A stretch of DNA of 64,000 nt. Origin: Ilumatobacteraceae bacterium (GTDB lineage Bacteria; Actinomycetota; Acidimicrobiia; Acidimicrobiales; Ilumatobacteraceae). The notes beneath the pieces are model-generated. The model saw only the letters and a list, made by a program, of their open reading frames with translations. It made no database searches and was not told where the DNA came from. Below, one piece after another: positions 3,311 to 14,787 of this stretch (position 1 is its first letter; every line of letters begins with the position of its first letter). Where the stretch lies: positions 8,257 to 72,256 of the forward strand of contig JBBANL010000009.1 in assembly GCA_040401975.1 (NCBI GenBank). Reading direction: 5' to 3'. The position numbers and the translations under genes were made by a program.

Positions 3311-4537
3311 TCAGGCGGGTGTTGCCGGTGGCGCGTCGGTTGTCGGTGCGTCGGGCGCCGGAGCATCCGCAGCCGGCGCCTTCTTCTTGAGTGCGGGAGT
3401 TCCGACCTTCACGGTCGTCTCGGCCCAGTCGGGCCAACGGCGACGGCTCACGATCGACAGTGTGCGCAACAACTTCATCGCGACTTCGTCTTCCTGCGCG
3501 GGACGCGACTCGATGACGCCGTCTTTCAGCATGCGTTCGATGACCTCGACACCCAGCTTGGTGCGCACGATGGTGAGGGTCCAGTCGTTGTCCTTGCCGA
3601 TGCCGCCGGTGGAGATGTCGGCGTGCTCGGCGGCAAAGTCGGGGCAGCTCTTGCAGCCTTCGCGGGTCCACTGGTGGCATTCTTTCAGATCGATCTCGTG
3701 GAACGAACCGTCTTTCATCCAGATCTGGAAGGCACCCTTGATATTCATCTTCACCATGTCTTCTTTCTTCAGGCCGTACTTTGGCTCGAAGAGTTCGGTG
3801 AAGATCGCGTCGTCGAATGTCTTGCTGCAGAGAAGACCGATGTTGAAGCGGAACGGCTTCGACACCTTGCCGGCCTTGCGGTCCCACATCACCGGCGGCG
3901 ACGACACCTGGCAACCCATTCCGACGAGAGCAAGATTCGAGAGCCCTTTCTCCTTCGCGTCACGCAATGCGAGCGGGTTCGCGCAGTACGTGTAGCGCGA
4001 CCCGGCGGTGGCGAGAACCTCGTCCTTGGTCTGCACGAGGACGGGCTTGGCCTTCCACCTGTCGTCGTCCTCGACGCCGCTCACCAGTGCACCCTCGATG
4101 TAGCCGTTGTCGAGCAACCACGTGAGCATCGCCGTGACGAAACCGCCGTCCTGGCCCTTCTCGTGCTGCGTCTTGTCGGTGGCGCGGGTCATCAACAACT
4201 GTTCCCAGATGCCGGCCATCTCGTCGTCTTCCCGGTCGCGACCGAAGAGGTGATTGTTGGCCGCGGATTCCCACGTGCGGAAACGCGGACACGCGCGGGT
4301 GCACGTCGTGCAGCCCTTCTCGCCGTGGATGCAGTTGTCGAGGCCGAGTTCTTCCTCGAGGTGGAACGGCTTGTACTTGCCCTCTTCGTGTTCGTAACCG
4401 ATCACGTCGTGGGGGCAGGTGACCACGCAGCCGGCACATCCCGTGCAGAGGCCTGTGTTGATGACCTCTTCGTAGAGTTCCTTCCACTGCGCTGTCCAGC
4501 GCTCGGCCTTGGCGGGGGCATCCGGTGTCATGGTCAT
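3311..4537 (-). CDS. FrhB/FdhB-family Fe-S flavoprotein (coenzyme F420 hydrogenase/dehydrogenase beta-subunit-like)
   Basis: The track ORF is trimmed to ATG 4537 (MTMTPDAPAK...) because its upstream part overlaps the PII gene. Two Cys clusters (CTGCAGCVVTCP and CIHGEKGCTTCTRACP) precede an FrhB-like body. The tail is Ala/Pro-rich. The start lies 17 nt after the PII stop. Confidence 0.65.
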   Translation of the reverse strand: MTMTPDAPAKAERWTAQWKELYEEVINTGLCTGCAGCVVTCPHDVIGYEHEEGKYKPFHLEEELGLDNCIHGEKGCTTCTRACPRFRTWESAANNHLFGRDREDDEMAGIWEQLLMTRATDKTQHEKGQDGGFVTAMLTWLLDNGYIEGALVSGVEDDDRWKAKPVLVQTKDEVLATAGSRYTYCANPLALRDAKEKGLSNLALVGMGCQVSSPPVMWDRKAGKVSKPFRFNIGLLCSKTFDDAIFTELFEPKYGLKKEDMVKMNIKGAFQIWMKDGSFHEIDLKECHQWTREGCKSCPDFAAEHADISTGGIGKDNDWTLTIVRTKLGVEVIERMLKDGVIESRPAQEDEVAMKLLRTLSIVSRRRWPDWAETTVKVGTPALKKKAPAADAPAPDAPTTDAPPATPA

Positions 4538-4554
4538 GACACCGAGACTAGGGC

Positions 4555-6178
<1,624 letters not shown>

Positions 6179-6230: not shown

Positions 6231-6258
6231 GTTTCGGAAGTGTTTCGGGCAGGTGAAT
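6231..6258 (-). promoter_or_regulatory. Candidate GlnR/OmpR-type site: three 11-bp-phased direct repeats upstream of amt (4928..6178)
   Basis: Plus strand carries GTTTCG (6231), GTTTCG (6242) and GTGAAT (6253). On the coding strand this reads ATTCAC-n6-GAAAC-n6-GAAAC, 53 nt upstream of the ATG. It resembles the recalled actinobacterial GlnR box gTnAC-n6-GaAAC. Confidence 0.45.
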
Positions 6259-6273
6259 GCACGCACAACGCAG

Positions 6274-6312
6274 AAAACCCGCGCCGGCCACGTCGTTGTG
6301 GCGGCGCGGGTC
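6274..6312 (-). terminator. Intrinsic terminator between the two amt genes
   Basis: Minus strand reads ACCCGCGCCGCCAC-AACGAC-GTGGCCGGCGCGGGT followed by TTTTCTG. That is about a 14-bp GC stem with one bulge, starting 16 nt after the stop of amt (6328..7599). Confidence 0.75.
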
Positions 6313-6327
6313 TCCCGAAGCCAGGTG

Positions 6328-8086
<1,759 letters not shown>

Positions 8087-10750
8087 TCAGTTCAACTGTT
8101 CGCTGACACGGTCAATCGCGGTCTGGGTGATCTTGCGACCGTGCCGTGTCGACACCTCAAACCGGTCGGACACCGCGCCGTCAAACGTGCTGATGCGTGC
8201 GTGGTGGACATTGATCCGTGCCCGTGCGAACGCTGCCGCGATGGCCTGGACGAGTCCGGGCTGGTCCGAACCCGTCACCGTCACCACGCTGTGCCAGGGG
8301 TGGGCATCGTTGTCGAGAGACAGGGAGAGAACCGCGCCCGTATCCCGCATCAATCGGCGCGAATCATCGATTTTTCGGCGCAGGCGCTTCTCCAACTCAA
8401 CGGCTAATTGCGGCGCCTGGGGGCTTTGTTCGCTGCGCACTCGGAACGTGTCGAGAACTGCACCGTCGCCCCATGTCGCGAGGTCGGCATCGACAATCTC
8501 GAAGCCGCGCTCTGCGAGCACTGCGCAGATGCGGGCCAGCAAGCCGCGCATGTCGCGGGTCGCGATGTCGATCTCCCATTCGTTCGAGACGTCGGTGGCT
8601 CGAACGTTCACGCGCACGGTGCGAGGGCGCGGCGCCGGTTCGACCAGGGTGGCGTGTCTCACGAGCACCTCGGGTTCGTGTGCAAGCAGGTACACAGGGG
8701 CGGCGTTGCGCAGGCGTTCGATCACGAGCGGGTCGGTTGTCAGCGCAATCGCGTCGCGTCGACGGACTTCGACCAGAGAATTCTCGGAACCTTCGATGAG
8801 TTCGGGATGCGCGAGAAGTGTCTGCACGTTGGTGGTGATGTCGACGAGCACGGAGAACTGCCAGTCCTGCAGATCGCCCCTTGCCTCAGTCAGCAGCCTG
8901 CACCGCTCGACCATCACGGGGGTCGCGAGGAATCCGGCGAGCTGGGCGAGAACGCGGTTGTCGGGTTCGTACGGTTCGGTGGTGCACGCAACATGCAACA
9001 GGCTCGATGCCGACATCAACGAGCGGGTCTCCTCGCGCGTGGCGTCATCGAGTGCCAGCCGGTCGAGCAGGGTCGACGCATCGGAGCCGTCGGAGAAGTC
9101 GGAGATGAACGCCGCGAGCAACAACGACTCATCGGCCGGAGAGAGTCTGTTGGACAGTTTCTTCAGCGCTTCGAGAACCGGTGTCTGTGCGAGGTGTGTG
9201 GGGTCCAGTTCGCTCGCGTCGCCACGCCGCGAACGTAGTGCGCGGGCAATCTCGGGCAATGCGCGCTCGAGAACGTTCGTCACGTCGAGAAAACGCCACG
9301 AGCGGGCGTTGCCCCGCATCAGCAGTTCGAGCAGCAGGTCGGTGGCACGAGAGTCCCACGTCAGCGGCGTGGCCCGTGTGGCGTGCATCCAATCGAGCAG
9401 CGCAGTATTGGGTTGCGAATGTGCGGCATGAAGTGACGCCTCGAGAGCCAACGGCAGCACGAGATCGGTGGGGGGGACCCCGTGCAACTGAACCTCGCCG
9501 TCGATGGCCCGGATCCAGCCGCCGACCGGTTCGTCGGTGGTGGCGGGTTCCGTTGTCGCGGCCGCGGCATCGTTCTTCGAGATTCTCCAGCGCAACAACG
9601 GCGGGGTGATGACAGTGGTGACGAGAACCATCAAAAGCACCACCGCGTAGAGGTCGTCTTTGAACACCCCGACAGACACCCCGATTGATGCAAAAATCAA
9701 CCCGACTTCTCCGCGCGGAACCATGCCGAATCCGATGACCAGTTTGTCGGTGTTCGTGCCGAGCGCACCGAGAGCGGCAAGCATCTTTCCTGCAATCGCA
9801 ATGACAGAGAGAATCGCGGCAACAATCAGGACATGGCCGTCAAAGAACTTCGTGACGTCGGTGTCGATGCCGATCTGCATGAAGAACACGGGAATGAAAA
9901 TGCTGCCGAGCACTGCGAAGTCACGGGCGATGCGATCGTGGTGCTCGGTACGTGCCAGAGCAACCCCGGCGACGAAGGCTCCGATGATCGGCGCCAGCTT
10001 CGCTCCGCTCGCCGCGGCGGAAAATCCGAACGTGACGCCCGCGGCGACGACCCCGACCGTGACCGGTGACGCGGCACGTGAAGAGATCCACTTGATGATG
10101 CGGGGCAACAGCACGAGCCCGATTGCGCCCGCCACCACAAGGAATCCGACGGCGAGCCCGATTGTGCTTGCGAGTCCCGCTGCATCGATCGACCCCTGTT
10201 CGACGACCCGCGTGACCACCGTGAGGATGATCAGGCCGAGAACGTCGTCGGCAACGGCCGCGCCGAGAACGATTCGCGCCTCGGTTGACGACAGAGCCTT
10301 GAGGTCGCCGAAGACACGGGCGGTGATCCCGACGCTCGTGGCCGCCAGTGCCGCCCCGAGGAACAGTGAGGCATTCATGCTCTCGCCGAGCAAACCGCCC
10401 GCGATGACGCCGCTCGACATCGGCAGTGTCACACCGAGAATGGCCACGATGAACGACGCGCGTCCGACGCGTCGCAATTCATTGAGGTCCATCTCGAGCC
10501 CCACCTCGGCGAGCAGCACGATCACGCCGACCTCGGCGAGGACACGCAATGCATCACTCGGCTCGACGAGACCGAGGGCAGAGGGACCAATCAGGATTCC
10601 GGCAACGATCTCACCTAGAACTGCGGGCACGCCCGCCCGTTCGCACAATTCAGACGCAATCTTGGCGACGATGAGCACGATTGCCAGGGTTGCGAAGATC
10701 TGACCGAAGTCGACGCCCTGTGCGGCAGCAGAAAAAACCACGGCGATCAC
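8087..10750 (-). CDS. CPA2-family cation/proton antiporter fused to a GlnD-like C-terminal regulatory region with two ACT domains
   Basis: N-terminal ~420 aa are Kef-like (GEIVAGILIGPSALGL, AVADDVLGLIILTVV). The C-terminus carries two ACT-like units (WEIDIATRDMRGLLARICAVLAERGFEIVDADL..., HSVVTVTGSDQPGLVQAIAAAFARARINVHHARIS...). The start is set at GTG 10750, 2 nt after the stop of the upstream gene. An alternative ATG at 10819 would overlap that gene. Confidence 0.7.
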   Translation of the reverse strand: MIAVVFSAAAQGVDFGQIFATLAIVLIVAKIASELCERAGVPAVLGEIVAGILIGPSALGLVEPSDALRVLAEVGVIVLLAEVGLEMDLNELRRVGRASFIVAILGVTLPMSSGVIAGGLLGESMNASLFLGAALAATSVGITARVFGDLKALSSTEARIVLGAAVADDVLGLIILTVVTRVVEQGSIDAAGLASTIGLAVGFLVVAGAIGLVLLPRIIKWISSRAASPVTVGVVAAGVTFGFSAAASGAKLAPIIGAFVAGVALARTEHHDRIARDFAVLGSIFIPVFFMQIGIDTDVTKFFDGHVLIVAAILSVIAIAGKMLAALGALGTNTDKLVIGFGMVPRGEVGLIFASIGVSVGVFKDDLYAVVLLMVLVTTVITPPLLRWRISKNDAAAATTEPATTDEPVGGWIRAIDGEVQLHGVPPTDLVLPLALEASLHAAHSQPNTALLDWMHATRATPLTWDSRATDLLLELLMRGNARSWRFLDVTNVLERALPEIARALRSRRGDASELDPTHLAQTPVLEALKKLSNRLSPADESLLLAAFISDFSDGSDASTLLDRLALDDATREETRSLMSASSLLHVACTTEPYEPDNRVLAQLAGFLATPVMVERCRLLTEARGDLQDWQFSVLVDITTNVQTLLAHPELIEGSENSLVEVRRRDAIALTTDPLVIERLRNAAPVYLLAHEPEVLVRHATLVEPAPRPRTVRVNVRATDVSNEWEIDIATRDMRGLLARICAVLAERGFEIVDADLATWGDGAVLDTFRVRSEQSPQAPQLAVELEKRLRRKIDDSRRLMRDTGAVLSLSLDNDAHPWHSVVTVTGSDQPGLVQAIAAAFARARINVHHARISTFDGAVSDRFEVSTRHGRKITQTAIDRVSEQLN

Positions 10751-10752
10751 GA

Positions 10753-11025
10753 CTAATTGTCTATCCGCTGGGCGAGGATTTTCTTCGCCGAATTGAGTCC
10801 GCGTTCCGTCAGGATCCATCCGCGTTGTCTCACGGTGTTGATTGCATCGGGCCCGAGCACGCGACGCAGGGCGACAAGACACACGTCGGCACGGCGCAGG
10901 CTCGCCGAATCAAGCCCGGCCAGGCGGGCCAGAGTCTCCCGGCTCGTCACGCGTCCTTCTTGTCGAACCAGCACGCGCAGCACGCTGATGTCGGCGTCGG
11001 TGAGGTCGTCGGAGCCGGGGTTCAT
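10753..11025 (-). CDS. Stand-alone OmpR/PhoB-type winged-helix DNA-binding protein (no receiver domain)
   Basis: 90 aa. LTDADISVLRVLVRQEGRVTSRETL...RRADVCLVALRRVLGPDAINTVRQRGWIL follows the OmpR C-terminal effector-domain pattern. Confidence 0.65.
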   Translation of the reverse strand: MNPGSDDLTDADISVLRVLVRQEGRVTSRETLARLAGLDSASLRRADVCLVALRRVLGPDAINTVRQRGWILTERGLNSAKKILAQRIDN

Positions 11026-11061: not shown

Positions 11062-11091
11062 GTTCGGCTGTTGTGAACGGTGTGTGAATGG
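11062..11091. promoter_or_regulatory. Three 11-bp-phased repeats (GTTCGG, GTGAAC, GTGAAT) containing 20-nt motif copy B
   Basis: Repeat starts at 11062, 11073 and 11084. The 20-mer TGTGAACGGTGTGTGAATGG occupies 11072..11091. It lies in the divergent region between the wHTH gene (start 11025) and the acyl-CoA dehydrogenase gene (start 11145). Confidence 0.5.
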
Positions 11092-11144
11092 ACACACCGC
11101 CTCGATGCGCCGATTCGACCGGAAAGCCGACAGACTCAGAAGCC

Positions 11145-12380
11145 ATGGAACTCACCTACAGCCCCGAAGACGAAAAGTTCCGCGAAGAGATTCGCGCCTG
11201 GTTGAAGGAGAACCTGCCCCAGGGTTGGTTCGACAAGGACTTCGAGATGTCCGCCGATGAGCGCAAGAAGTTCAACGACGAATGGCCCGCCAAGTTGTTC
11301 GCCGGCGGATGGATCTGCGCGACGTGGCCGAAGGAATACGGCGGCAAGGGGCTCACCACGATGCAGGGTGTGGTGCTGTCGGAGGAGTTCGCGAACGCAA
11401 AGGCGCCGATGCGCGCCGATTTCTTCGGCGACACGCTCGTCGGCCCGACACTGCTCCAGTGGGGAACCGAGGAACAGAAGAAGGAATTCCTGCCGAAGAT
11501 CCTGAACGGGTCAATGCGCTGGTGCCAGGGCTTCTCCGAGCCGAACTCGGGTTCCGACCTCGCCAGCCTGAAGACCGCAGCTGTTCTCGACGGTGACGAG
11601 TGGGTCATCAACGGCCAGAAGGTGTGGACCACGCAGGGTCACCACGCCGACTACTGCTTCCTGCTCACCCGCACCGATCCTGAGGCGCCGAAGCACAAGG
11701 GCATCTCGTACATGCTCGTGCCGATGAAGCAGCCCGGAGTCGAGGTGCGCGGAATCGTGCAGCCTGACGGCACCGCCGAGTTCTGTGAGGTGTTCTTCAC
11801 CAATGCGCGTTGTCCGAAGGACAACGTCGTGGGCGGTGTGAACAACGGATGGGTCGTCACCAACTCGACACTCGCTTTCGAGCGCGGCATGAGTGCCACC
11901 ACCGGCTACCGCCGCTTCGAGTCGGAATACAAGGCGATGGTGCGCGGCGCGAAGGAGAACGGCAAAATCAACGACCCGAAGATCCGTCAGCGTCTCATGA
12001 ACTACTACACGAAGATCCAGATCCTGAAGATCAACGGTTTGCGTTCGTTGTCGACCACGCTCATGAACAAGAAGGATCCTGCAATGGCCGCGCTCGGTGC
12101 GACCAACAAGATGTTCTGGACCGAAATGCACAAAGAGGCAATGGAACTCGCTCTCGACATCGGCGGTGCGGATTCGATGCTCGTCGACTTTGCTCTCGGC
12201 GACGGCAACTGGCCGGGCACTGCGCGCGAGAAGCGTCGCGAGGGATATCCCGTCAGCAGCATGATGTCGGCATTCTTCTTCTCGCGTTCGGAGACCATCT
12301 GGGGCGGCACCAGTCAGATCCAGCGCAACATCGTCGGCGAGCGGGTTCTCGGTCTGCCGAAAGAGCCGAGCAGCAAGTAG
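11145..12380 (+). CDS. Acyl-CoA dehydrogenase (FadE-like)
   Basis: The track ORF is trimmed to ATG 11145 (MELTYSPEDEKFREEIRAWL). WCQGFSEPNSGSDLASL and the overall ACAD N/M/C layout support the call. Confidence 0.85.
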   Translation: MELTYSPEDEKFREEIRAWLKENLPQGWFDKDFEMSADERKKFNDEWPAKLFAGGWICATWPKEYGGKGLTTMQGVVLSEEFANAKAPMRADFFGDTLVGPTLLQWGTEEQKKEFLPKILNGSMRWCQGFSEPNSGSDLASLKTAAVLDGDEWVINGQKVWTTQGHHADYCFLLTRTDPEAPKHKGISYMLVPMKQPGVEVRGIVQPDGTAEFCEVFFTNARCPKDNVVGGVNNGWVVTNSTLAFERGMSATTGYRRFESEYKAMVRGAKENGKINDPKIRQRLMNYYTKIQILKINGLRSLSTTLMNKKDPAMAALGATNKMFWTEMHKEAMELALDIGGADSMLVDFALGDGNWPGTAREKRREGYPVSSMMSAFFFSRSETIWGGTSQIQRNIVGERVLGLPKEPSSK

Positions 12381-12388
12381 CCCGCCTC

Positions 12389-12904
12389 GTGTTCGCGCGG
12401 GCACGGGTCTCGGCTCCGTTCGGAGGCCTCACCGTCGTTGCATCAGACGCGGGCGTTCGTTACGTCACTTTCGACAACGACGCGCATCCGAAATCGTTCG
12501 ACGGCATGCACATCGTCGATGACGATTCACACCCCGTGGTCGCCCGTGCGGTGTCGCAGTTGTCGGAATATCTGGGCGGTCATCGCACCGACTTCGACGT
12601 ACCTCTCGATCTCGTCGGGACCGAATTCCAGGTGCAGGCGTGGCGGTCGCTCGCCAAGGTGCCCTTCGGCGCCACCGCGTCGTATGCACAACAGGCAGCA
12701 TCGATCGGTCGGCCCACTGCCACACGCGCAATCGGCGCCGCAAACGGGCGCAATCCCGTGGTGATCGTGTTGCCGTGCCACCGCATCGTCGGTGCCGACG
12801 GCTCGCTCACCGGATTCGGCGGCGGGCTGCCCGTGAAGAAGTGGTTGCTCGACCACGAGAACGAAGTGACGAGACGACGAGGGTCGTCGCTGCGCCGCGG
12901 TTGA
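12389..12904 (+). CDS. ogt: Methylated-DNA--protein-cysteine methyltransferase
   Basis: In-frame GTG at 12389. NPVVIVLPCHRIV active-site motif. About 171 aa, typical for Ogt. Confidence 0.85.
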   Translation: MFARARVSAPFGGLTVVASDAGVRYVTFDNDAHPKSFDGMHIVDDDSHPVVARAVSQLSEYLGGHRTDFDVPLDLVGTEFQVQAWRSLAKVPFGATASYAQQAASIGRPTATRAIGAANGRNPVVIVLPCHRIVGADGSLTGFGGGLPVKKWLLDHENEVTRRRGSSLRRG

Positions 12905-13780
12905 TCACTGGGCGGGTGCCTCGGTTCCCTCGATGGCCGCGCGGCACATGTTGCGTTGTGCCGGCCAGTAATCGTGAACCGCGTAGTGCTGCGTGCTGCG
13001 GTTGTCCCACATCGCAACTGTCCCGGGTCTCCACCGCAGGCGCACCTGATACTCCGGGATCTCGACCTGGTGCAGGAGGTAGTTCATCAGGTTGTTCGAC
13101 TCGAAGGTGTAATCGGCGCCGACGCGAATGCGGTCGAAGCGCGCGAAGTTCACGAAGTTCGTGGTGAAGCCCTGGTTCACGTACAGCACCTTCTCGCCGG
13201 TCTCGGGGTGGGTGACCACGACCGGATGACGGGCAGGCGGGTGCTCGTCGACGAGCTGTGCGCGCGCCTCGGGTGTCATGTTGCCGCCGAACGACTGCTC
13301 GATCGAGTGGATCGCCCACAGATCGTTGATTCGCTCCTTGATGCGATCGGGGAGTCTGTCGTACGCCATGGCCATGTTGGCCCACATGGTGTCTCCGCCG
13401 ACTTCGGGCACGACTTCGCTCTTCAGCACCGCGCCCTTCGGCGGGACCTGTCGCCATGTCGCATCGACATGCCACACGTTCTCGTACGTGGAGCGTTCCT
13501 TCTGGCGCTGGATCAGGACGATGCCCGGGTAGTCGGGGTGCGACGGTGCCACCGGGTGGTCCTCGAGCGAGCCGAAGCGGAGAGCAAAATCACGGTGCTG
13601 TCCGTGCGACAACTCCTGTTCGCGGAAGAACAGAACCTTGTGGGTCAACCACAACGAGTGAATGTGCGCGAACAGATCGTCGTTGGTGATCGCCTCGGAG
13701 ATCTGCACCCCGGTGATCTCCGCACCGAGAGCGGGCGTGCACTGTTCGACCTTCATCTTCGTGCCGGTTGTCGTCGTCAT
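12905..13780 (-). CDS. TauD/TfdA-family Fe(II)/2-oxoglutarate dioxygenase
   Basis: Trimmed to ATG 13780 (MTTTTGTKMKVEQC...). WHVDATW (HxD) and VGGDTMWAN motifs. The upstream part of the 440-aa track ORF overlaps the qor gene. Confidence 0.85.
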   Translation of the reverse strand: MTTTTGTKMKVEQCTPALGAEITGVQISEAITNDDLFAHIHSLWLTHKVLFFREQELSHGQHRDFALRFGSLEDHPVAPSHPDYPGIVLIQRQKERSTYENVWHVDATWRQVPPKGAVLKSEVVPEVGGDTMWANMAMAYDRLPDRIKERINDLWAIHSIEQSFGGNMTPEARAQLVDEHPPARHPVVVTHPETGEKVLYVNQGFTTNFVNFARFDRIRVGADYTFESNNLMNYLLHQVEIPEYQVRLRWRPGTVAMWDNRSTQHYAVHDYWPAQRNMCRAAIEGTEAPAQ

Positions 13781-13797
13781 GATGTGTGCTCCTTGTG

Positions 13798-14787
13798 TCA
13801 AGTGGTGAATTCGAAGATGCTCGATCCGGTGGTGGTGCCTGACTCGAGTGCGACGTGTGCGGCGACCGCTTCGCCGAGTTGCCACCGCTGGTTCACGGTG
13901 ATCCGGACCGCGCCGTTCGCGATGCGGGTGAAGAGGTGGTCGACGAGTGCCCGTTTCTCTGCGGGGTCGGCGATGTAATCGGCCATGGCCGGCCGCGTGA
14001 GAAAGATCGAGCCCTGACGCATGAGGCGCGGCGGTTCCACCGCGGGCACGGGGCCCGATGCGGTTCCGAGGCACACCAACAATCCGCGACGTGCGACCGA
14101 CGCAACCGATGACTCGAACGTGCTCGCCCCGACTCCGTCGACGACCATCCGCGCGCCCTTGCCGCCGGTGATCTCGCGCACGCGCTCCGCAATGTTGTCG
14201 GTTCTCGTGTTCAGCACCTCTGAACATCCGGCATCGAGGGCGAGAGGTTTCTTTGCATCGTTGCTCACGGTTCCGATCACCGTGAGCCCCATCTCGGCGG
14301 CCATCTGGCAGAAGATGAGACCGACCCCGCCCGCCGCCGCGTGCATCAGCACTGTGTCACCCGCACGAAGATCCCAGATGCTCGTGAGAAGGTACGACGC
14401 AGTGAGGCCCCGCATCGTCGACGCGGCGGCGATGTCGAAGGCAATCGAATCGGGCAGCGGTATCAACGAGTCGGTCGGCATCGTGCGAATGTCGCTGTAC
14501 GCGCCGAGCGGGCTGCCCGTGTAGGTCACGCGATCACCGACCGAGAATGCGGTCACGTCTGCACCGGTGGCCACGATCACGCCGGCCCCCTCGACACCGA
14601 GCCCGTGCGGGGTTCGACCGGGGTAAAGACCCGAACGGAAATAGGTGTCGGCGATGTTGATGCCCACGGCATGATGGCGAACCGTCACTTCGTTCGGCCC
14701 GGGCGCCACGAGAGACGAGGACTCGAGAGTCATCACTTCGGGTCCTCCGTGTTCGGGCACCACGACACGCGTCGAGGTCAGTGTCAC
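13798..14787 (-). CDS. NADPH:quinone oxidoreductase / zinc-type alcohol dehydrogenase-like (MDR superfamily)
   Basis: 329 aa with AAAGGVG nucleotide-binding glycines and a Qor-like layout. Confidence 0.8.
   Translation of the reverse strand: MTLTSTRVVVPEHGGPEVMTLESSSLVAPGPNEVTVRHHAVGINIADTYFRSGLYPGRTPHGLGVEGAGVIVATGADVTAFSVGDRVTYTGSPLGAYSDIRTMPTDSLIPLPDSIAFDIAAASTMRGLTASYLLTSIWDLRAGDTVLMHAAAGGVGLIFCQMAAEMGLTVIGTVSNDAKKPLALDAGCSEVLNTRTDNIAERVREITGGKGARMVVDGVGASTFESSVASVARRGLLVCLGTASGPVPAVEPPRLMRQGSIFLTRPAMADYIADPAEKRALVDHLFTRIANGAVRITVNQRWQLGEAVAAHVALESGTTTGSSIFEFTT

Follow-up and report, generated by a model that had tools for sequence, protein, structure and literature searches.

The question raised by the locus described here is what a cation/proton antiporter would do with a C-terminal tail resembling GlnD, the PII uridylyl/adenylyltransferase, in a gene that stands beside those of ammonium transporters and PII proteins. 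The locus lies in a 64,000-nucleotide stretch of DNA (the window) from an Ilumatobacteraceae bacterium (GenBank assembly GCA_040401975.1, contig JBBANL010000009.1, positions 8,257 to 72,256 of the forward strand), for which an initial annotation had described a Kef-type antiporter fused to a catalytically stripped GlnD-like sensor and had proposed a nitrogen-gated K+ or NH4+ efflux valve. According to the present analysis the fusion is genuine; its membrane half is closest to the NapA antiporter, and its tail corresponds to a GlnD from which the transferase half and the hydrolase residues are gone and in which the pair of ACT domains is kept. The reading as a NapA-type antiporter that is gated by nitrogen status through a GlnD-derived tail is given a probability of about 0.5. 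The gene and its parts are (positions of the window):

8087..10750, minus strand: fusion gene, 887 aa (NapA-like CPA2 antiporter, pseudo-HD helical domain, ACT1 and ACT2)
9566..10750, minus strand: membrane domain, residues 1-395, CPA2 Na_H_Exchanger, NapA-like (PF00999, PDB match)
8648..9463, minus strand: all-helical domain, residues 430-701, homologue of the GlnD HD region by sequence profiles (hhalign, column counts, AlphaFold2 (AF2) model)
8435..8614, minus strand: ACT1, approximately residues 713-772, with an invariant D-x-x-G-L loop (D733..L737) and F769 (Pfam ACT, AF2 model, alignment to GlnD ACT1)
8090..8326, minus strand: ACT2 and C-terminal helix, approximately residues 809-887, with invariant D829, P831, G832 and F864 (Pfam ACT, AF2 model, alignment to GlnD ACT2)

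The open reading frame ending at 8087 on the minus strand stays open to 10882, and from the GTG start at 10750 it encodes 887 residues, exactly the sequence of the public gene call P0001. A Pfam scan of this protein detected Na_H_Exchanger at residues 26-386 (E 5.8e-61) and ACT twice, the second at residues 822-866 (E 2.6e-13, whole protein), and no match to RCK, TrkA, CBS, NTP_transf_2, GlnD_UR_UTase or HD. Full-length relatives with both domains (approximately 880-890 aa, 57-100% identity) form more than 120 clusters at 90% identity clustering, the same five-gene arrangement is present in an independent Logan assembly, and in a species-level scan, with one genome for each species, 145 Acidimicrobiia genomes proved to encode a relative of the tail; among the 80 loci that were fetched, the CPA2 half immediately precedes the tail in the same frame in every case where the contig extends far enough. 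A tail-only profile searched against 1.84 billion representatives yielded 219 matches at E <=1e-30, the best 150 of which were all the fusion or fragments of it as judged by length and match position (and by Pfam in ten atypical matches checked), and no N-terminal partner other than CPA2 was seen among these 150. That the protein is an artefact, i.e. a product of frameshift-joined genes, an assembly chimera or a decaying pseudogene, is hardly conceivable: the reading frame runs uninterrupted, the length of approximately 885 aa is constant across hundreds of independent assemblies and the 145 genomes, and conservation is seen in both halves. Since full-length relatives occur in at least 145 species-level genomes, neither a frameshift nor an assembly join accounts for the single continuous gene that had been annotated. 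The commonest residue reaches a mean frequency per column of 0.65-0.73 in the tail versus 0.80 in the membrane part, and the tail is therefore under selection.

The assignment of the membrane half to CPA2 was borne out (PF00999, 206.9 bits versus a cut-off of 26.2), but that to its Kef type was not. The closest PDB relative is NapA of Thermus thermophilus (4bwz, E 4.3e-65 over residues 24-393), whereas KefC (8bxg) is matched with E 8.5e-16; in terms of E-value the membrane half is approximately 50 orders of magnitude nearer to NapA. In the alignment with NapA all motifs are matched (TSVGITARV, AA(V/I)DDVLG, the lysine of I(L/A)GK, PRGEVGLI); in the present protein they correspond to TSVGITARV at residues 138-146, D168-D169, K322 and PRGEVG at 345-350 (PRGEVGLI at 345-352), and the ion-site motif columns show a conservation of 90% or more among 62 diverse family members with tail identities down to 27%. 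The NCBIfam equivalogs of the Kef group scored far below their cut-offs (KefB 76.9 versus 804 bits, KefC 73.2 versus 752 bits; with YbaL included 73-83 bits versus 700-800, i.e. approximately 10 times below), and the more general TIGR00932 (2a37) model, aligned over positions 2-274 of 275, reached 170.4 bits and thus also remained below its cut-off of 238.3. A Kef identity was rejected on these grounds. Because of the NapA match (E 4e-65) and the intact aspartate pair of TM5, K322, TSVGITARV and PRGEVG motifs, the transporter half looks like a functional NapA-type CPA2 antiporter.

KTN/RCK is the textbook regulatory domain of CPA2 transporters; KefC carries it at the C-terminus, where it controls the efflux of K+ according to the presence of glutathione adducts. 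The expectation of the initial annotation that such a domain should occupy the region behind the membrane part did not hold: the solved NapA chains (4bwz, 5bz2, 5bz3; 385-394 aa) align nearly end to end with the membrane half, NapA is consequently a protein without a large C-terminal domain, and in a NapA-like protein there is no reason to expect a KTN domain. Instead, the fusion adds approximately 490 soluble residues, presumably cytoplasmic ones, and no TrkA/RCK domain was matched by Pfam at E values up to 0.1 in the 887-aa protein. An ordinary RCK or CBS tail was likewise rejected in the domain-profile comparison that had been suggested for RCK, TrkA_C and CBS modules, in which none of these was matched and the GlnD equivalogs were the strongest hits. 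With KefC and KefB the fusion may share a common design, i.e. a CPA2 transporter with a C-terminal cytoplasmic ligand-sensing gate, by analogy with which gating is proposed here; it differs from them in lacking their regulatory domain and in the weak similarity of the membrane part.

By homology with NapA, the transported ion is most likely Na+ (Li+) in exchange for H+, and Na+/H+ is a more likely substrate pair than K+/NH4+. The initially proposed Kef- or AmhT-like valve, which would release K+ or NH4+ at nitrogen excess, appears unlikely. It would suit a CPA2 member located beside two Amt genes, transporters of K+ and of K+/NH4+ do occur in CPA2, e.g. KefC and AmhT, and ion specificity cannot be given by sequence alone; against it stand the difference between the NapA and KefC matches, the low scores with the KefB, KefC and YbaL equivalogs, and the lack of a KTN/RCK domain in the protein as well as of a KTN-type ancillary gene adjacent to the fusion in the fetched loci.

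The soluble part showed its strong NCBIfam matches exclusively to GlnD equivalogs, with generic ACT proteins at 1e-5 or worse. The best of them, TIGR01693, aligned residues 629-886 with model positions 569-845 of 850 (E 4e-24), its score of 84.8 bits being below the cut-off of 519.4, as were those of all GlnD equivalogs far below theirs. Profile-profile comparison (hhalign) extended the homology beyond the ACT domains: positions 159-456 of the tail were aligned with residues 556-874 of the E. coli GlnD (probability 97.7%), positions 39-461 with residues 360-780 of the 786-aa GlnD encoded at a related acidimicrobial locus (L068; 97.6%), and the helical part alone (tail 6-277) with residues 333-628 of an alignment of ten GlnDs (94%, E 1.4e-7), a region that spans the HD domain of the L068 enzyme. 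Homology begins at approximately GlnD residue 333-360, and by these profiles the tail and GlnD remain colinear from a point shortly ahead of the HD domain, across both ACT domains, up to the C-terminus (GlnD approximately 333-780). The joint alignment is colinear as well: LPE(I/W) is paired in both, LLLAAFISDFSDG is placed under LLvGALmHDlGKG of GlnD, and LTEARG under LTEADSkATGP. As the tail is not nearer to the acidimicrobial than to the E. coli GlnD, its divergence would be an old one.

The catalytic equipment of GlnD is missing throughout. The nucleotidyltransferase and GlnD_UR_UTase half, detected by Pfam in the control GlnDs of L068 and E. coli, is absent from the tail; in agreement with the initial annotation, no G-x-G-[RK] motif occurs in the 887-aa protein, and its sole HD dipeptide (residue 271) is located inside the membrane part, so that the soluble part contains none. 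The further claim that neither catalytic domain is left was correct for the transferase half only, since the HD region appears to be retained as a pseudo-domain. Its metal-ligand motif HD is changed to S550-D551, the GDH loop is deleted, and the final aspartate is replaced by R624; in 61 diverse members the histidine of DxH, the histidine of HD, the GDH loop, the helix histidine and the final aspartate are lost, i.e. positions that are invariant in the ten GlnDs are occupied by variable residues or deletions in the tail. The aspartate of HD, kept in 53 of the 61 members, is the only GlnD-invariant residue of this domain to persist, and Pfam HD gave no match in the helical part even at E values up to 10. 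What had been described as a helical stretch reminiscent of the GlnD central region is thus indeed homologous to GlnD, and the profiles identify it more specifically as a degenerate homologue of the HD region and not as a mere linker. Four of five features tested for membership in GlnD are lacking in the fusion protein; the fifth, the two C-terminal ACT domains, is present (Pfam, AF2 model, alignment to GlnD ACT1 and ACT2). The tail would accordingly represent a catalytically dead GlnD in which the transferase half is missing, the HD region is degenerate and the ACT pair is intact; from GlnD it differs also in being anchored to the membrane via the transporter.

The claim that the last approximately 190 residues form two GlnD-like ACT units was supported. 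The loop Asp/Gly/Leu and the Phe positions common to GlnD-type and ACR-type ACT domains are invariant in both units, and the AF2 model of the tail, calculated from the 62-sequence family alignment (predicted local distance difference test (pLDDT) 93.3, predicted template modelling score (pTM) 0.86), consists of 19 helices followed by two ACT-type units, with a pLDDT of 93 for the helical domain and a strand-helix-strand-strand order in ACT1. Foldseek comparison of the whole tail model with the PDB yielded weak tandem-ACT matches only (best 7jsr, 2.7e-3, then 2nyi and SerB2), none of them described as GlnD, and a PDB sequence search with the tail gave a marginal ACT match and nothing else. The Pfam family PF26956 is precomputed on some members of the fusion family and on some GlnDs. 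A comparable detachment of GlnD-type ACT repeats from catalysis and their reuse as regulatory modules is known from the plant ACR proteins and from AMA2 of Chlamydomonas, the latter being activated by glutamine via its ACT domain according to PMC11190351 and PMC3173338; these proteins are soluble and confined to plants and algae, none of them is fused to an ion transporter, and none contains an HD-like domain.

The initial annotation had also placed the fusion gene in a nitrogen context, with amt and PII genes as neighbours and a small winged-helix gene in front. The genes and elements concerned are:

10753..11025, minus strand: stand-alone OmpR/PhoB-type winged helix-turn-helix (wHTH) protein, 90 aa, no receiver (Pfam Trans_reg_C)
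11072..11088, minus strand: GlnR-box-like direct repeat TTCACACACCGTTCACA (TTCAC-n6-TTCAC), 47 nt upstream of the wHTH start
8066..8082, minus strand: second exact copy of the 17-mer TTCACACACCGTTCACA, from 4 nt past the fusion stop, approximately 140 nt upstream of glnK1
7589..7927, minus strand: glnK1, PII protein, 112 aa, T-loop tyrosine in YRGSEY (Pfam P-II, E 6.6e-34)
6328..7599, minus strand: amt1, ammonium transporter, 423 aa (Pfam Ammonium_transp, E 2.6e-122)
6272..6317, minus strand: terminator-like hairpin followed by UUUUCU, after amt1 (RNA fold)
6231..6257, minus strand: TTCAC-n6-GAAAC-n6-GAAAC element upstream of amt2 (read by eye, no statistics)
4928..6178, minus strand: amt2, ammonium transporter, 416 aa (Pfam Ammonium_transp, E 8.2e-125)
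4555..4893, minus strand: glnK2, second PII protein, 112 aa, directly after amt2 (reading frame, translation, synteny)

The neighbouring amt and PII genes were recovered by Pfam as annotated, with the addition of glnK2, which was missing from the gene list of the initial annotation and likewise keeps the T-loop tyrosine (YRGSEY). The two Amt/PII pairs occur in opposite order, glnK1-amt1 (glnK1 overlapping the amt1 start by 11 nt) followed by amt2-glnK2, and the amt2-PII pair is syntenic in related loci. The wHTH protein matches Trans_reg_C over residues 7-71 (E 3.7e-7, 30.6 bits versus a cut-off of 26.2); this domain fills residues 7-71, no receiver domain was found in the 90-aa protein by Pfam, and the 2-nt gap to the fusion start (TAG-tc-GTG) is as had been described. 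Its top NCBIfam match is the C-terminal wHTH of PRK07239 (HemD-wHTH, NnaR type; E 2.5e-8), the HemD-wHTH architecture being that of the nitrogen co-regulator NnaR (PMC6277429). A protein search with the wHTH sequence returned close orthologues of 89-94 aa only and, as regards a link with GlnR or NnaR, added nothing to the NCBIfam match; all homologues are of this size. In comparison with NnaR and GlnR, the actinobacterial orphan nitrogen regulators of the OmpR type, the wHTH protein may be related through this best curated match and through the upstream repeat, which fits GlnR boxes, but it has neither a receiver nor a HemD domain. Among the 61 loci scored for motifs and wHTH genes, the wHTH gene is present in 45 of the 48 with PII/Amt genes downstream and in none of the 13 without them (Fisher's exact p = 8.5e-11, uncorrected for phylogeny).

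The published GlnR boxes conform to GTnAC-n6-GTnAC or gTnAc-n6-GaAAc, with a critical A at position 4 (PMC10704036). The repeat TTCAC-n6-TTCAC fits these actinobacterial boxes and is considered a predicted site, to which either a complete GlnR from elsewhere in the genome or the small wHTH protein might bind. The window contains two copies of the 17-mer, each on the strand of the genes (chance expectation 0.17 even with 3 mismatches), and the second half-site of the copy at 11072-11088 overlaps a -35-like hexamer in a promoter-like match. Within 600 nt upstream of the CPA2 gene the box is kept in 39 of the 61 scored loci, which include distant clades, and a related TT(T/C)ACA..CGTTCAC is found upstream of glnK in 14 related loci. 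The element upstream of amt2 fits the a-n6-b type of GlnR box; since a strong hairpin follows amt1 (-38.1 kcal/mol, z-score -6.2, not equalled in any of 200 shuffles) and this GlnR-type element then precedes amt2, the arrangement suggests GlnR-type regulation of amt2-glnK2 as a unit of its own. No terminator-like hairpin was found in the interval from the fusion gene to glnK1, which starts 159 nt downstream. A 16-bp perfect palindrome (GTCATCACGTGATGAC, 7952-7967) just upstream of the glnK1 ribosome-binding region was discarded as a candidate element; it is present in no related locus and is probably not significant.

The link to nitrogen is thus backed by conserved glnK/amt synteny together with the shared predicted GlnR-type box, and both bear on the alternative that the ACT pair senses another amino acid or metabolite, the position in the nitrogen cluster being historical and the tail perhaps captured from a neighbouring glnD. 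ACT domains are described as generic amino-acid sensors in PMC3173338, the fusion persists at loci without nitrogen genes, and the tail is of old divergence, no nearer to the acidimicrobial than to the E. coli GlnD; however, the box upstream of the operon is conserved across distant clades, the tight operon linkage is with a wHTH gene that co-occurs with glnK/amt, and the best ACT matches are specifically those to GlnD models. In view of these points such an origin and input are regarded as quite improbable.

The order of genes in the fetched loci is a divergent acyl-CoA dehydrogenase gene, the wHTH gene, the fusion gene, glnK, amt, an optional second amt and glnK, and a gene for an FrhB-like protein. 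Three configurations were distinguished: the clade of the window (A; tail identity at least 45%) possesses the full cluster; clade B (13 scored loci) contains the dehydrogenase, fusion and FrhB-like genes alone, and the box upstream of the fusion is absent in all 13; in clade C (distant loci) wHTH, fusion, amt and glnK genes, with the box also represented upstream, are accompanied by a convergent amt-glnK-glnD operon. The acyl-CoA dehydrogenase frame of the window (11088-12380, plus strand) probably starts at its second methionine (approximately 11145), since the annotated ATG overlaps with the GlnR-like box and conservation with distant loci is seen from approximately residue 15-22 onwards. 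The FrhB/FdhB-like gene (F420 hydrogenase/dehydrogenase beta-subunit-like, 4Fe-4S dicluster; 3311-4621, minus strand) adjoins the nitrogen cluster downstream and serves as a conserved synteny anchor in nearly all related loci; its true start is probably near 4537, and a role in nitrogen metabolism, e.g. in an F420-dependent reduction, is possible.

The amt/glnK neighbourhood of the fusion is that typical of actinobacterial glnD, and tblastn searches with the N-terminal and HD segments of GlnD confirmed that no canonical glnD exists in the 64-kb window. That the fusion stands in for a missing glnD did not hold as a general rule: a canonical glnD was found within 8 kb of the fusion in 11 distant relatives (L065, L066, L068, L070, L072-L074, L077, L078, L081, L082), e.g. 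in L068 at 11608-13968 on the minus strand (786 aa; NTP_transf_2, GlnD_UR_UTase, HD and ACT). In consequence, the fusion is to be seen as a paralogue able to coexist with glnD and not as its universal replacement. In clade A the FrhB-like gene directly follows amt2-glnK2, the position taken by glnD in clade C, and at the loci of the window's clade no glnD occurs there. A search for the GlnD N-terminus in the lineage gave 132 clusters, mostly of single sequences, versus fusion clusters of up to 328 sequences, and the two match contexts inspected were unrelated loci; the scarcity of such clusters is no more than suggestive of a lack of glnD in the lineage of the window. It is put forward with considerable doubt that in the window's clade the GlnD-to-PII cascade may have been replaced by a membrane-bound pseudo-GlnD that would read glutamine and/or GlnK and convert nitrogen status into a cation/proton flux, with the wHTH protein tuning the regulon.

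As preferred here, the mechanism would involve a functional NapA-type antiporter performing electrogenic cation/proton exchange, whose GlnD-derived cytoplasmic pseudoenzyme (the degenerate HD helical domain and the two GlnD ACT domains) would sense nitrogen status and gate or tune the transport accordingly. The C-termini of NapA and KefC are cytoplasmic, and since the tail follows the last transmembrane helix, the sensor would be located where glutamine and PII are found. Glutamine bound at the ACT pair would be the likeliest input: the response of GlnD to glutamine requires the ACT domains (Zhang et al. 2010, as cited in PMC11190351), GlnD-type ACT domains have been reused as a glutamine-responsive module in AMA2 (PMC11190351), and for both reasons glutamine is the most economical choice. 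The fusion gene would be co-transcribed with the small OmpR-type winged helix, and their operon would belong, with the adjoining glnK-amt units, to one nitrogen regulon controlled by GlnR boxes. As to the physiological logic, one may speculate that the exchanger compensates charge and pH during electrogenic ammonium uptake or energises Na+-coupled nitrogen uptake.

Several points weigh against this mechanism. ACT domains bind many amino acids, and to our knowledge the glutamine site of GlnD is without a structural definition; moreover, the reason why Na+/H+ exchange should track nitrogen status is not obvious. The 13 loci of clade B, which lack adjacent glnK/amt genes, the wHTH gene and the box, indicate that the fusion protein can work outside a nitrogen cluster. 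Foldseek comparison of the helical domain with the PDB found nothing at E <=0.001; the top matches were helical parts of class II CCA/A-adding enzymes (TM approximately 0.5, E 0.07-0.5), and neither these nor PDE5A at rank 27 were counted as confirmation of an HD fold. Because of this lack of a significant structural match, the pseudo-HD assignment derives from sequence profiles alone. Finally, the conservation of the helical domain, including the aspartate of HD, could point to a role in binding a partner rather than to a passive linker.

The last point leads to the alternative that PII (GlnK) docks onto the tail, in which the pseudo-HD domain would still bind the PII T-loop but would no longer deadenylylate or deuridylylate it and GlnK would switch the antiporter in a manner for which its plugging of AmtB is the model. 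By the profiles, the ancestor of the pseudo-HD domain is the domain with which GlnD acts on PII in its modified form; the pseudo-HD domain is retained, conserved and confidently folded despite the loss of its catalytic residues (with the aspartate of HD in the aforementioned 53 of 61 members), glnK1 lies 159 nt downstream with no terminator in between, and the clade C fusion coexists with a canonical glnD whose product could modify GlnK. That PII commonly regulates membrane transporters is stated in PMC4285133 and 10.1101/2023.08.10.552651. On the other hand, the 13 fusion loci of clade B have no adjacent glnK, and the ligand-loop motifs kept in both ACT domains speak for a retained small-molecule input, so that PII docking as the function of the tail is judged rather doubtful. 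The two inputs are compatible, and ligand binding at the ACT pair and docking of GlnK may both apply to the glutamine-gated antiporter preferred above.

The family is common among freshwater Acidimicrobiia (acIV/Ilumatobacteraceae group). Some single fusion clusters contain >100-300 metagenomic sequences (up to the mentioned 328), the record titles of the carriers nearly all name Ilumatobacteraceae, Acidimicrobiaceae or unclassified Actinomycetota metagenome-assembled genomes (MAGs), and the isolate names refer mostly to lakes, rivers and other fresh waters. Several public MAG records (L003, L016, L021, L029, L034, L042, L043, L069 and L074) are titled 'uncultured Bifidobacterium sp.' or 'Acidobacteria bacterium'; such titles on Acidimicrobiia-type loci are probably taxonomic mislabels in the source records. 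In the databases the protein carries automatic names such as 'cation:proton antiporter', 'ACT domain-containing protein', 'NhaS3' and 'KefB/ACT'. In line with the initial annotation, to which no described Kef-GlnD(ACT) architecture was known, full-text searches of the searchable library found no paper describing a CPA2 or other antiporter joined to GlnD-type ACT domains.

For CPA2 transporters, gating by a pseudoenzyme tail of GlnD origin would be new. We know of no earlier direct link between glutamine/PII nitrogen sensing and a cation/proton antiporter, and the family suggests such an undescribed link between nitrogen status and ion and pH transport. As a case of domain repurposing it is a clean natural example, in which a bifunctional signalling enzyme has been deprived of its transferase half and its hydrolase residues and has kept its sensor; the compact, confidently modeled tail (pLDDT 93) could moreover help to find where glutamine binds in ACT pairs of the GlnD type. 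If the replacement of the GlnD-to-PII cascade in the window's clade were true, ammonium uptake via two Amt channels would be coupled to pH and charge homeostasis. The fusion family probably bears on the handling of ammonium by abundant lake bacteria.

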